Shown here piece after piece: positions 24,928 through 56,830 of a stretch of DNA of 64,000 nucleotides. Source of the stretch: Octopus sinensis (taxonomy: Eukaryota); the NCBI RefSeq assembly GCF_006345805.1, contig NC_042998.1:158782001-158846000 (forward strand), written 5' to 3'. The notes beneath the pieces were generated by a model. It was not told the origin of the DNA. It saw only the letters and a list, made by a program, of their open reading frames with translations, and did no database searches. Within the stretch, counting starts at the first letter, position 1; every line of letters starts with the position of its first letter. The position numbers and the translations under genes are program-made.

Positions 24928-25487
24928 GCCAGCTCCTGTGGAGGGCTCTTCATTAGGCCTTGGGCCCAACAATGACTCGTCATTGAGTACATATTAAAGT
25001 TTATTAAACTTGAACAATATTTTTCAAGCAATGAACAATTTTCATCAAAACAATGATATAATTTGTCGACTTGGAACTTACTGCAAAGCTGCATGATAAA
25101 CAACAGTACCACCACCACATCTGCCATGCACACACCATTCAGACTTCTGACGCCACCACCATCACTACCTTTGACTTGGCCGCCTTTCCCCTCCACCACC
25201 ATCTCCACTGTCTTTCACATCGCTTACTCTCACCAGCATCCATGACCACCTCGGCTACCACCACCACCGCCACCATCATCACCGCCACCTCCGCCTCTAT
25301 CACAACTGCAGCTCATACTATTACTATCATCCATTACAATCGCAAAAAGGCAAAATGTGTGTGTAAAGAATTCAGTGTTCAGTATGTTCGTTCAGCATGT
25401 TAGTTCAGTAAGTTGGTTCAGTGTTCAGTCCCTCTTTCTTTCTCTCTCTCTCTCTCTCTCTCTCTCCCTCCCTCTCTCTATCTATAT

Positions 25488-25566
<79 letters not shown>

Positions 25567-25900
25567 GTCTTATTATTACTCCCACTGCCAACATCAACAC
25601 TACTACCTTTAATAAAACATCAACTCTCCCTAAATTTCTTTCTCACTCTACCTCTCCCTTTCTTTTCCGTTTTCTCTTTCTATCTTTACCACCGCCCTCA
25701 CCGTCTCTATGCCTATTATTACTCTCACCCAAGCAATAGAAGACGCGTTATTGAATAATGAGAGAGGGGTCAAAGTGTGACACACTGACACACAGAAATT
25801 GGTTTTCGCATGTATTATACTAGATTATATATATATATATATATAAAAGAAAGAAAATGCACACACTTTACATATATTTTTTAATACATTTTATATTGTG

Positions 25901-25937
25901 TTTGTCGACCGGTTTCGCTTTCGCTAATCATGACAAA
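25901..25937 (-). ncRNA. hammerhead-like motif, A3-U8 core variant
   Basis: Minus strand TTTGTC-ATGATTA-GC-GAAA-GC-GAAA-CCG-GTC-GACAAA; 6-bp stem I, GNRA-capped stem II, palindromic ACCGGT. Confidence 0.7.
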
Positions 25938-28007
25938 CTGTCAATTAAAGAAGCAGACAAAGGAAGTACTGTAGTCCTGAAGGACACAGAATACTACAAA
26001 AACCTAGTATTATACATGCTAGCAAACGATGCCTTCTAAGAAAAAGTAGTAAACTATAAACAAAAATCTTGCATCCTTAGTTCTTCTACATAGAAAAGGC
26101 CCGACAGAAAAATATTTCACGTACTTTAAAAGTAAACCTAGTATTTTTTATAGCCTACCTAAAATACACAAGAGCGAGATAGTTAATGAAGCCTGCAAAC
26201 AATCATCAGGCAAATACATAAATATCCAAGCGCCAGAAGACCTAAAGTTAATACCCATTATAGCTGGCTCAGCTTGTGAAACCCACTGTCTAAGCTTTAT
26301 TCGAGACATCCTACGGAAACCATTGCTGAAATATATCAAAAGTTTCATTAGAAACAATCTAAACATGCTTGAGCACCTATCAAAAACAACTAATGAAGAG
26401 ATATTATTGGTTTCCTTCGATGTTATTAGTATTTACACCAACATCCCACATAATTATGGAATAGAAGCAATAAAATTCTGGTTGGAAAAGTAACCCGAAG
26501 TACTTCCGGAACTCATAAACTAGGTTTTTATTATTGAAACTTTAAAATTTATGCTTCAGAACAATTATTTCCTATTTGATGACACCTACTATCGTCAAAA
26601 ATGCTGATTGCGATGAGAACGAAAGCAACCCCTGTTCTTGTAAACCTAATAATTAGATATTTTTATTTCCCCATATATGAAGTATCACTGCAAAAATATG
26701 GATACTCATTTCACATTATTTAAGAGAGAACTGGAAAAGATACCTGGATGACTGCTTTATCATTTTGGAAGGAGACAATTGACAAACATTTGGAATTTAA
26801 ATCAATACTAAATAATATAAACCCTAACATTCAATTTACAATGGAATATAGCAAAGAACAGCTCCCTTTCTTAGATATTATGATAAAAAACGTCAACAAC
26901 CAAATTATAACTGACATTTATCATAAACCAATGAACTCGAAGCAATATCTCCTGTTTAGCTCATGCCACTCGAAATATATCATTTAATTTAACAAAAAGG
27001 ATTTGCACACTAGCGTCTGATAGAAATGCTTGGGACCTTCGTTTCCAAGACCCCAGAAGACTAACTGAAAGATAATATCCACACTCACTTATTCACGATG
27101 GACTTAAGCATGCTAAGAAATTAGACATTAAAACACTAAAGACAACAAAACGTAGCACTATCACCTTATCTCAAAACACTACTGTATATGTCAACTCACA
27201 ATCCTAGAAACAATGAGGCATACAACGCTATTGTACAAAATCTTACTATGCTCACTATATATCCAAAAATAAACATTCTGAAAACATGAATTCATCAAAT
27301 GCAAAAAGCAACCCAAATCGTTGAAAAGACTTCTAACAAATGCAAGGCTTTACGCAACAACCACGAAACTAACGGTTAAAAATATGGACGCCCAAACTAT
27401 GAAACTTGCCCCAATGAACTGGAAGGATCGGAATTCCTATTCAAACAAGGAGAGAGGTTCACAATTAAAACCAACTTGCTCAGGTTGTGGACATAACTAT
27501 ATAGGATAGATAAGTATGGCACTGTGACAGAGAACCACCCTACATTAGGAAGAGATCCGGTTCCTGCAATACAGAGAGTGAACACATAGAGAGATGTGCA
27601 GGTAATATCCAACCAAACTTCACAGTTTCCCTATCTACCAGTGCAAAGAAACAATTTCTATACAAGAACGTTTAAATAAAGAAAAGTTGTTCATCGAAAA
27701 ATACAGAACACTTCTAAAAATGAACGTATAAGAAACTTTGATCTCAAATATTTTAATTCATGATCACATACCCATCACTGTACATATTACATCTCACTAC
27801 TTTAACATTTGGGGTTTTGTATCTATATATATATATATATCCCCTCCACGAAAGATGAGAAATTACCCCACTCCACTATCCTCAATAATAACGATCACCC
27901 TTTACCTCCCAGTAGATTTTTCCGCTTATCGACTCATTCATTCACAAACTTCTCCACACAAAACATGGATTAAAATCTTAAGAAAATACGAAATTTTAAT
28001 AATTTCA

Positions 28008-28043
28008 GTGTTATGATTAGCGAAAGCGAAACCGGTCGACAAA
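28008..28043 (+). ncRNA. hammerhead-like motif, A3-U8 core variant (second copy)
   Basis: TGTT-ATGATTA(28013)-GCGAAAGC-GAAA-CCG-GTC(28037)-GACA. Confidence 0.65.
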
Positions 28044-28173
28044 CACAATTTAAAATATATTAAAACTATAAAGTGTGTGCATTTTCCTTCTTTTATTTTA
28101 TATATATTTTTTCTTTGCAGTGATACTTCATATATGGGGAAATAAAAATATCTAATTATTAGGTTTACAAGAA

Positions 28174-28582
28174 CAGGCTTGTTCCTTTTGTTTTCCAAAT
28201 TTCTCTCAGAAGCCTTGCTTTTGTACAGTTATCAATGAAGTGTTTGATACCTCGTTCTATAATGCCCTTACGGATTAGTATGTCACTGGTCATCCCATGA
28301 AAACAAAGCATCTTTTGAAGATTTAGCATATTTCATCAAATATTCTCTGCAATCATTTTACCGGTTATCCACCTCGGCAGAAAATTTGTAATACAATTTC
28401 TTCATATCCATTACACACATGTGGCTCAGAAGACCTTTATTTTGAAAGAGCTGAAAGGATTGACCTTTAGCTTGTTCAAAATTATTAACACTTTAACAAC
28501 AGTTTTGTTTTCTCTTTTGAGTTTTCAAATGCTTGTGTGAAAAGCATACATGGACAATATAACTTCCTTAATTCATTTCCAA
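28174..28582 (-). repeat. inverted duplicate of 29833-30242
   Basis: About 410 bp, apparently identical reverse complement (for example CAGGCTTGTTCCTTTTGTTTTCC versus GGAAAACAAAAGGAACAAGCCTG). Confidence 0.9.
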
Positions 28583-31174
28583 TAACGTGGGGATAATCGA
28601 GATTTCTCTCTTTTTGTTACTATATATGCGTGTGCATATATATGTATGTATATATATGTATGTATGCTGATATATATATATATATATATATATGCTTTGC
28701 CAAATAAACTTACTCTTCATTTTAGTGATTCACATGCTCTCAGCTTATAACTGAAACGGCGGTAAGCTAATGAAGTTGATTCGGTCATTTCGGTTCTCCT
28801 GTCATTTATTTATTTTCATAATATGCTAGGTACTCAACTAACTCTCTATTCTGAAGCTTATGTACATTCAGTTCTAACACTAGGTTGTTAGTATCGCTGT
28901 GCCTAAGTGAAATATTAAAATGTGTGTGTGTGTGTGTGCCTGTGTAAGTGTATGAGTATAACATGTAAGTCTGCTTATATACATGTGTTATATATATGTA
29001 ACATAAGGAAATCTACTGGCATACATTTTTTTATGTAACATAAGTGAATCTTCTAACATACCTTTCGTGTGACAAGAAAATATATTCTTGACTTTCAATT
29101 ATATTAACTTGCTCAAATGCAATACGACATTTCGACTAGAAAGTTCGTCAACTAAATTATGCGACTAGTTTATCAAATCTGGCTGCAAAATAGAGGATAT
29201 TGTTCGTATAGCCGAATTGTCTTATATATTTAGCGCAGTTAAGTTGATATTTTCTACAGTTACAAATTGATATACAAGCTCTTCATTGTGATTAAAAGAT
29301 GTCTCCATAGTTTCAAATATTATCACATTCTTCGAGACTCAAGGTCGAAAGTGGTTGTTAATTCTCTAACTGTACTATTTCCAACGCAATAACTTTCGCA
29401 TTAAAAAGAAAATAATGTTAACTGCGGTGCTACTGAAGATGAGAATCGCACAAAATATTCCTCTTTTTTTCCATGCACTTTTACTGGTAAGTCTTCAACA
29501 CAATAAAGAAAAGAATATTTTCAAAATTTAAGAAATAAGCAAAAGTTGGTTAGAACATTGTACAATATTACGCAGGAAGAAAAGATACTGATTTCAAAAA
29601 TATTGTCTTTAAAGTTTATCAATGCTATAGTCTTTTCTCATCTACTCTTTTTGAATAGAACTTTTGAAGGAATAGTGATTTTTTTTTTCAAATCAAATAC
29701 AGAAAGCTGTTATCTCGTTGCTACACAAGATAGCTCTCAATGTCTCTAGGAACTTCAAGAATGTTGAAGCTTTCAGCCTTGGAGACACTTTTCCTGTCAC
29801 AGACGAATCCACCTGCTGTGATTAATAAATCTTTTGGAAATGAATTAAGGAAGTTATATTGTCCATGTATGCTTTTCACACAAGCATTTGAAAACTCAAA
29901 AGAGAAAACAAAACTGTTGTTAAAGTGTTAATAATTTTGAACAAGCTAAAGGTCAATCCTTTCAGCTCTTTCAAAATAAAGGTCTTCTGAGCCACATGTG
30001 TGTAATGGATATGAAGAAATTGTATTACAAATTTTCTGCCGAGGTGGATAACCGGTAAAATGATTGCAGAGAATATTTGATGAAATATGCTAAATCTTCA
30101 AAAGATGCTTTGTTTTCATGGGATGACCAGTGACATACTAATCCGTAAGGGCATTATAGAACGAGGTATCAAACACTTCATTGATAACTGTACAAAAGCA
30201 AGGCTTCTGAGAGAAATTTGGAAAACAAAAGGAACAAGCCTGCTTTCGAGTCTTAGGAAGAGGTTCCTCTTAAAGTTCAAGGACGCTAGGAAACGATTTT
30301 AGCATACACATTAGGAAATGCTGAGTGGGTGACTTTCAGAAAATTATATCCAGTTTCTCATGATGCGAGCGTGGCGACAAACATTTCCGTCAATAACATG
30401 TCAATGGTATAAGAGATAGTAGAGAAGTAATTTGACAATTGCACTTCTCAAAGTTATTCTATTCATGTAACACGCCTTGCGTATAATCTGTTAGTTTTGA
30501 GAAAAAGTTTTACCGTTAGAAAATTATGTCAGACTGTGTAAAAATGACAATATAAAGCTGGGAAAAGTATTCTATTAGTATTTTGAATTATCGCTTACAT
30601 GCATATAACTTTTCTGTACACACACCTTGTAAATTACACACACCTGATATGATTTACAAGGTTTCCAATAGAAGCAAGCATACTTTGAAATAATCACTAT
30701 TTCTGTCTCCTTTGTTTGCGATACACATCTCCTCCCATTATGAATGTTTTTTTCAGATTCCTCAATAAACACCATTCTCTATACCCTCTCTCTTGTCAAA
30801 TGTCTCTGAGGAATGTAAAGTACCACTTCTCTTTCTTTTTACATACATAACTATTTATATAGGAAAACATGTCAACCCTTAACCTATAACTAATATTTTT
30901 CACTGAGTATTTAGCAACCTCCTTTTATAAGGTAAATTTATGGACATATAATGAGTGCTGTGAATAACATGATCGATAGAAGGTCGGAGCAACTACTTTG
31001 TGGTATATGGCACGTCCCTTACGTTCTGTGTTCAAATAGCATTCAAGTCAACATTAACTTTTATGTTCTCTTGAAGGTGGTGCCCTAGCCGGACTACAAA
31101 ATTGACCGAAAGTAACGAAATAACAAACATTATAACGAAATAACAAACATTATAACGAATAACAAACATACACA

Positions 31175-55600: not shown

Positions 55601-56830
55601 GATGCTTCGAGCCTACGCTAGTCGACAGAAAGCATTGAGAGGGGGAAAGCAGAGAGAGAACGAAAAAAAAAACGGAGGGAGAAAAATTGTGTAACGTTTA
55701 ACGGTTCAACATGATGAACCATTACGCAAGGGTACCCAAGCACATGGGTGTATGTGAAAATGGTGTGTGTGTGAATGTAGATGTGTGAATGGGGCATGCG
55801 AATGTGTGTAAGGGTGAGCTTAAAATTATGTGGGCTTGTGTTTGTGTAGTGCGTACATTTTGTGGAGTGATGTGTGGTTCATGTACAGGTGTGTATGTGT
55901 GTGCATGTGTGCGTGTGAGTGCGTGTGCGTGTGCACGCGCGCATATGTGCGTGCGCGTATGTGTGCGTGTGTTTGCAAACGCATGGGCTTGTGCGTGGGA
56001 ATAGGCGCATGCGTGTGTGTACAAGTAACATAATGCGTGTGTGGTGTGGAGTGATGTGCGTTTCGCGTATTTGTGTGTGTGCATATGGACGAGCGTATAT
56101 GTTTGTGAGACTATCGTGTGTGTGTTTGTGTGTGTGTTTGTGTGTGGGGATGTGCGTATGCAAACGCTTGTGTTTAGCAGTTGATGTTCGAGTAGTGTGT
56201 GCACGTGTGTATGTGTGTGCGTAATGGTTTTTGATGTGAGTACTGAGTTGAACAGTGTGAATGGTGGTGTGTGTGGGAAGGGGACTGAGTCAGGTGGTGT
56301 GCAGGTATGAGGGTGGATGGGAGGGTGAGCTGAAGGTGGGAAGCGTGTAGGTATCAGTGTGGGGTTGATGTTAAATGAAGGGAGGTGGCGAATTGAGACC
56401 TTAAGGAGCAAAAAAACGAAGGGAGAAGATTAATTCTTGTTCACGGTGAATGCGTGAGTTCGGGTGGCTCCTGAAAAAAGTCAGTCCGAAAACAGACATA
56501 TTGTAGCGAATGATCGGTGGAGCGAAAGTGGTGCTAGACGGGGGTGTCATTGTCGAGTGTGATGTTTCGGAGGTGCTCAGTCAAACGGTCGGTCAAGCAG
56601 CGTCCTGTTTGATCAATGTACAGGGAAGGACAAAGAGAGCAGGAGATGCAGTAGATAACATTGCTGGAGATGCAGGTAAAAGAGTCGGTGATGTGATAGG
56701 AGCATTGGTGGGTACCGGTGAGGGTAGTGGTGTTGGAGAACTATGGGCTGGTGTGACAGCATGGACGAGAGCAGATGAAGGAGTCACGGTGGGAGTCGAG
56801 AGTAGGGATAAAACTGTGGACCAGGAATTC
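55600..56830 (-). mobile_element. Penelope-like (Neptune-type) 3' fragment: GIY-YIG + CA-rich UTR + HHR-like end
   Basis: Manual translation ITDSFTCISSNVIYCISCSLCPSLYIDQTGRCLTDRLTEHLRNI (about 56690-56560); ends in CTTT-CTGTCGA..AGCGTAGGCTCGAAG next to (TA)n. Confidence 0.85.

Follow-up and report, generated by a model that had tools for sequence, protein, structure and literature searches.

The tertiary pair between positions 3 and 8 of the hammerhead ribozyme holds the general-acid nucleotide of this ribozyme in place. Przybilski and Hammann reportedly found in 2007 that, in a scaffold-dependent manner, activity can persist with any of the Watson-Crick pairs at 3-8, and the work of Lunse et al. 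in 2017 is said to be the closest study of small hammerhead variants from Penelope-like elements (PLEs). The U3-A8 pair is in print for natural hammerheads (Perreault et al., 2011; PMC3088659) and for PLEs (Cervera and De la Pena, 2014; PMC4209133). The covariation of positions 3 and 8 in PLE hammerheads has been published since 2011-2014, which limits the surprise of a further variant. Perreault et al. cite Przybilski and Hammann for the activity of covarying 3-8 pairs, and they call a stem II of two pairs common (PMC3088659). The minimal hammerheads (min-HHRs) of metazoan PLEs are described as cutting slowly, even as dimers (PMC4209133), and the hammerhead of a lizard PLE as cutting only with its protein (PMC11167929).

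We analyzed a stretch of 64,000 nucleotides from Octopus sinensis (contig NC_042998.1, positions 158,782,001 to 158,846,000; the window), in which a decayed PLE, truncated at its 5' end, carries two hammerhead motifs with A3 and U8, one in its inverted pseudo-LTR and the other in its 3' pseudo-LTR. The features of this locus are as follows.

25831-25935, minus strand: inverted pseudo-LTR piece at the 5' end of the truncated element, 87.6% identical to 28009-28107
25900-25938, minus strand: left minimal type I hammerhead motif (A3 25931, U8 25926, C17 25907), with stem II at 25924-25917, the palindrome ACCGGU at 25913-25908 and the predicted cut between 25907 and 25906
25932-25935, no strand: microhomology of 4 nt at the junction between inverted pseudo-LTR and RT body, by comparison with 9 family copies
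25938-27742, plus strand: RT and GIY-YIG endonuclease body, 5'-truncated and frameshifted, beginning just before the DKG motif
27743-28008, plus strand: 3' untranslated part leading into the hammerhead, from alignments to copies L037 and L124
28009-28041, plus strand: right minimal type I hammerhead motif (A3 28013, U8 28018, C17 28037), with stem II at 28020-28027, the palindrome at 28031-28036 and the predicted cut between 28037 and 28038
28042-28113, plus strand: first part of the pseudo-LTR tail, from family tails
28114-28582, minus strand: later insertion splitting the tail, which repeats 26631-26694 (64 nt) and 29834-30242 (409 nt) exactly and in inverted orientation, the two pieces overlapping by 4 nt
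28583-28622, plus strand: last part of the pseudo-LTR tail, with a TA-rich microsatellite at its end, placed by eye against family tails

The left copy reads UUUGUC-AUGAUUA-GC GAAA GC-GAAA-CCG-GUC-GACAAA on the minus strand from 25937 to 25901, exactly as an earlier note on this DNA had described it, and the matching core that the note placed at 28013-28037 is likewise correct letter for letter. The core N3-U-G-A-N-N8-A ... G-A-A-A ... U-H is present in the type I stem order, and all of it apart from positions 3 and 8 is canonical, so that the claimed change at exactly these two positions of CUGANGA holds. The 25-nt A3/U8 core (25931-25907, minus strand, and 28013-28037, plus strand) is identical in both copies, and the arms at 25831-25935 and 28009-28107 are 87.6% identical over 105 columns, in agreement with the claim that the copies diverged elsewhere and kept the core. 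This identity is weak evidence of selection, since a single insertion gave rise to both copies and the intact cores were the reason for choosing the locus; the evidence for selection comes instead from the comparison of subfamilies described below.

In the subfamily stem I has 4 bp, UGUC/GACA. The 6-nt stem I of the earlier note is present in its letters, and that of the left copy can be drawn with 6-7 bp, but its outer bases are the antisense of the RT body across the inversion junction, and the extra length is an accident of that junction. In the right copy, a C-to-U change at 28012 gives a G-U wobble (28012/28038) at the stem I pair that closes the core. The motif had also been called extremely small; however, relatives with C3-G8 share both the 2-bp stem II and the palindromic stem III, so its size is not unusual. 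An Rfam search of the locus returned no hammerhead at the gathering score and none at E <= 10, so the motif is invisible to this search; the earlier note had expected this for CUGANGA searches. Allowing up to 3 mismatches, the 33-nt motif had 588 matches in the genome (22 exact) versus 0 for the reversed control, and it is therefore not a product of chance. A second match of the relaxed scan in the window, at 25048, was dismissed as an AT-rich chance match.

The assignment of the host to the PLEs is borne out by the RT and GIY-YIG endonuclease body between the arms. A 146-aa piece matched named Octopus and bivalve proteins, several of them with PF00078 and PF01541, and two short ORFs of the window had no match in Pfam. 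The window copy (L061, subfamily A1) aligns in its body to family copy L121, which carries PF01541 and, just under the cut-off, PF00078, and whose translation has a CX2-5CXXC linker before the endonuclease, a feature of Neptune or Nematis. Relative to longer copies in the genome, the RT body of the window is 75-80% identical at the DNA level, and tblastn recovers it as pieces in three frames. The hammerhead lies ~270-300 nt past the end of the RT-endonuclease ORF in the window as well as in L121-L128. The inverted pseudo-LTR piece runs out into a (TA)n tract at ~25826-25845, and a 5'-truncated body with an inverted terminal piece in (TA)n is reported as the usual layout of PLEs (PMC8557442). 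Pseudo-LTRs with 5' truncation were present both here, in inverted form, and in the sister element L133, as a tandem direct copy. The CX2-5CXXC linker is given as defining Neptune/Nematis-type PLEs, and an RT-endonuclease with this linker is common to the EN+ PLEs of that type and to the family studied here (Craig et al., 2021; PMC8557442). The element belongs with the EN+ PLEs and, by its linker, would be of the Neptune or Nematis type.

Compared with the published Neptune/Nematis-type elements (PMC8557442), relatives of this family add an upstream ORF of ~450 codons that overlaps the RT frame. This ORF was seen in the sister families (L130, L133), with homologues in L115, L124, and L125 and also in the metagenome loci L197, L207, and L232; it had no Pfam match. 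In both of the 2 copies examined, the overlap with the RT-endonuclease frame falls at the run UUUUUUAG, which suggests a ribosomal frameshift between the two frames. The insertion in the tail of the window copy is 100% identical to the segments it repeats, inside an element that is ~12% diverged, which suggests that it is either recent and templated or an artefact of the assembly. A GT...AG intron was considered for the tail and dropped, as the apparent acceptor belongs to this later insertion. In addition, a second and more distant PLE endonuclease remnant is found at 56561-56773 of the window on the minus strand (38% identity, E 2e-7).

A3-U8 is the state of the family and not a local mutation. 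The earlier note had left the family consensus to be checked, and it does keep A3/U8: in the family background 551 of 596 copies have the pair, whereas 25 are changed only at position 3, 20 only at position 8, and 0 at both. These scattered, even, single changes are the decay pattern of dead copies. When positions 3, 7, and 8 were left free, 65 exact matches were obtained, with A at 3 in 55 and U at 8 in 62 (counted by eye); the literal CUGANGA box, with C3 and G8, occurred in none of the 65, A3/U8 taking its place. Loci chosen by RT protein alone, some of which overlap, had A3-U8 at 19 of 20 motif positions. The family was also found in contigs from the runs of four organism labels, where no other letter appeared at 3 or 8 (4% cut) among the copies taken in, which were at least 82% alike. 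The 65 copies, with 10 changes at 3 versus 3 at 8, had hinted at an amplified C3-U8 subfamily; this was not upheld, because the genome-wide counts are 25 versus 20 and the changes are spread over all letters and loops; copies with C3 did not form one clade (37 of 84 rows, without upstream homology, were dropped).

The wider distribution of these states was obtained by scanning the genome with a general pattern, G10.1...C11.1-GAAACCGGU, in which positions 3 and 8 are free. It gave 6,270 matches versus 10 in the control, comprising 4,895 minimal hammerheads with U3-A8, 897 with A3-U8, 93 with C3-G8, and 385 with other states, so that 5,885 of the 6,270 carry U-A, A-U, or C-G at 3-8. With CUGANGA in only 93 motifs of this build, published descriptors undercount it badly. 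U3-G8 wobble cores are found among the matches listed (C1:10543281, C1:10543688, and C1:11663451, two of which are one inverted pair), and they are possibly intermediates or products of decay. The majority of the 93 C3-G8 motifs are one family (L274-L282), often repeating at ~360-bp spacing; no RT match was found near it in 10 loci tested, and it looks like a non-LTR retrozyme. Almost the same stem II accompanies a U3-A8 core at C1:20622811, a further swap between C-G and U-A.

Across related families, positions 3 and 8 covary as a Watson-Crick pair, which supports the view in the earlier note that A3-U8 is a preserved pair. Sister families of the same genome (58-68% amino-acid identity) show this build with U3-A8. 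Metagenome loci with related RTs yielded 18 motifs from 17 of 80 loci, 16 with C3-G8 and 2 with U3-A8, and among these 18 there was no unpaired 3-8 and no A3-U8. All 14 family representatives pair at 3-8 (C-G in 8, A-U in 3, U-A in 3). Over all cells 91.4% were paired, which was above all slid controls and was reached in 0 of 500 shuffles, a test that is inflated by the relatedness of the 14 representatives. In the same representatives the G10.1-C11.1 pair closing stem II is always G-C (14/14), and both sides have changed at each of the 4 pairs of stem I and at the second pair of stem II.

The RT-endonuclease tree (29 of 45 rows, with row L124p4947 left out as a flank artefact) places the A3-U8 copies in one clade (95/98), whose sister is a U3-A8 family (100/100). 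Both are nested inside two more U3-A8 branches (97/96 and 100/100), the outgroups are mostly C3-G8, and a quick tree of all 45 rows agrees. With A-U nested in U-A in this way, the likely path is from C-G through U-A to A-U, and A3-U8 likely arose once by flipping an older U-A pair, not by a direct swap from C-G. The variant is therefore compensatory, as first described, in that the 3-8 pair is kept, but its likely source is U3-A8 and not the C3-G8 of the canonical box. Because of the single origin, the hundreds of copies with A-U are not independent evidence.

Evidence that the motif was maintained after the flip comes from the subfamilies of the A3-U8 clade, whose mean distances from the column majority are 11.8% for A1 (the older one, with the window copy), 6.9% for A2a, and 5.0% for A2b. 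Between A1 and A2b, 85 of 296 flank columns (29%) and 0 of 22 core columns differ (Fisher p = 0.0017), a comparison that is biased in that most copies were extracted with a core-requiring pattern, and for which the loci chosen by RT serve as a check. Stem I pairs were swapped compensatorily twice between these subfamilies, once from G-C to A-U and once from A-U to G-C, and one of the swaps is seen also as paired differences in all four organism-label runs. The other changes are confined to N7, the stem II loop, and the outer part of stem I. The unchanged core and the compensatory swaps indicate that the motif was likely under selection while carrying A3-U8 and while the family transposed. No clustering of the 5' ends of copies at the predicted cut was seen, in loci mostly chosen for holding the motif.

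Taken together, the reading we prefer, with a probability of about 0.7, takes the motif for the minimal type I hammerhead of a single PLE family, in which the 3-8 pair likely flipped once to A-U and likely stayed under selection, and which is predicted to cut slowly after C17 as a dimer, the copy in the window being probably inert. In the active fold, A3 would pair with U8 as C3 does with G8. The 6-nt palindrome ACCGGU is unable to close a hairpin, so stem III would form between two copies, which may be supplied by tandem pseudo-LTRs or by two transcripts. Of 4 sequences cofolded with this palindromic stem III, 2 had the full double hammerhead as their fold of lowest energy, namely the left copy and an A1 copy. 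The right window copy gave a partial one, its stem II being only partly formed, and A2b, the youngest subfamily, had a different fold as its lowest-energy dimer. By likeness to other PLE hammerheads, cutting would be slow and may need the protein of the element, and we consider slow, dimer- or protein-dependent cleavage of the A3-U8 motif reasonably probable. The cut would process precursor RNA. The two motifs of the window lie on opposite strands, so one transcript would carry the sense copy and its antisense, which would pair with each other in place of a dimer; together with the broken ORF, this makes the window locus probably inert. No RNA source was listed for the motif; in one run, taken by guess for RNA, it is present as contigs, which shows neither transcription nor ends. 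Position 17 is C in the A3-U8 family and U in its sister family.

Selection on the motif could also act on a folded RNA element, such as a binding or priming site for the RT-endonuclease, with A3-U8 cutting negligibly, and we regard this as rather unlikely. When one type III hammerhead was put through a scan of all its double mutants, G3-C8 alone was rescued and the other mutants of that region, A-U among them, were low (PMC9901934); as the scan implies that A-U and the naturally common U-A are both low, that construct may be a poor guide. PLE hammerhead mutants did not impair insertion in vitro, so that insertion there is independent of cleavage, and in that study no RNA reads ended at the hammerhead cut site (PMC11167929). 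The very poor cutting by metazoan min-HHRs (PMC4209133) would fit as well, as would the A at cleavage position 17 in the two U3-A8 sister families that are commonest among the matches listed (L133, L135, L145, and L154): this A17 could pair with U3 and trap the core, as an analogue of the inhibitory C3-G17 pair. However, the catalytic G5, A6, A9, G12, A13, A14, the A15.1-U16.1 pair, and a non-G at 17 are kept across families, no fold but the active one contains the 3-8 pair, and a binding role has no obvious need for a 3-8 pair kept in three forms.

The pairing could also be a coincidence, A3 and U8 having arisen as separate, neutral changes in a dead ribozyme that was carried along by the founder of the family; this is disfavoured and in our estimate quite improbable. 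Given two changes, the chance of landing on a pair is ~1 in 3, and the single origin of A3-U8 would also suit this explanation. A point against the preferred reading is that, barring a joint change of both positions, the path from U-A to A-U had to pass through A3-A8 or U3-U8, in which 3 and 8 are unpaired. Against coincidence, the rest of the core is undecayed over 29% flank divergence, stem I was compensated twice after the flip, and every 3-8 state change in both trees keeps a pair. Still less probable is that A3 was selected because it creates an AUG start codon at A3-U4-G5, with U8 following to restore the pair. A3 does create the AUG, and the ORF of the Anolis PLE starts inside its hammerhead (PMC11167929), but the frame closes after 16-18 codons in 4 of 4 translated copies and is unconserved beyond the motif, and AUG was for this reason rejected as the ORF start. 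In the sister L133, moreover, the first ORF has its methionine ~240 nt past the motif. The family copies examined included no full-length one with A3-U8.

A natural lineage with a purine at 3 and U at 8 tests how far the hammerhead active site can change, and the genome offers C3-G8, U3-A8, and A3-U8 motifs in nearly one scaffold with the same palindromic stem III. The family bears on whether PLE hammerheads really cut, and if A3-U8 were selected yet inactive, a non-catalytic role for PLE hammerheads would be indicated.

Besides the Neptune/Nematis-type elements, three described systems are closest to the family. The pseudo-LTR hammerhead of the Anolis Poseidon element PAc is similar in its location, and its 3-8 pair was shown to matter, G3-C8 rescuing in part, with cutting that needs the protein of the element; PAc differs in its canonical C3-G8, in an ORF that starts inside the motif, and in belonging to the Penelope/Poseidon clade and not to the clade with the linker zinc finger (Frangieh et al., 2024; PMC11167929). 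In the natural U3-A8 variants of Perreault et al. (2011; PMC3088659), the tertiary 3-8 pair covaries naturally, as it does here. The PLE min-HHRs, including Schistosoma Cercyon with U3-A8, share with this family the type I topology, the pseudo-LTR site, G10.1-C11.1, a palindromic stem III for dimers, a short stem I, copies in the thousands that are mostly solo or inverted, and a compensatory 3-8 change (Cervera and De la Pena, 2014; PMC4209133). In contrast to them, the family has a purine at 3 and a pyrimidine at 8 (A3-U8), and a 2-bp stem II without an extra base after A9 (PMC4209133). The extra unpaired base between A9 and G10.1, common but not universal in min-HHRs, is absent here and in most close relatives, and it is absent also from some rows of the published alignment (PMC4209133). 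The part of the supplementary alignment examined has only C3-G8 and U3-A8 cores (PMC4209133). Our comparison also covered the portions consulted of PMC6765202, PMC3884650, PMC10085705, PMC2920678, and bioRxiv 10.64898/2026.07.22.740005, and no natural A3-U8 hammerhead was found in the searchable text of the literature and supplements. Set beside these systems, the A3-U8 form of the PLE minimal hammerhead is a real variant, shared across the family and backed by phylogeny, and it is likely a working natural variant for which self-cutting is predicted. Tentatively, and at somewhat less than even odds, it may be the first family-wide natural A3-U8 hammerhead that is active, from one clade that walked the 3-8 pair through C-G, U-A, and A-U within a 35-nt scaffold with a 2-bp stem II, a build of which pattern searches miss ~98% here.
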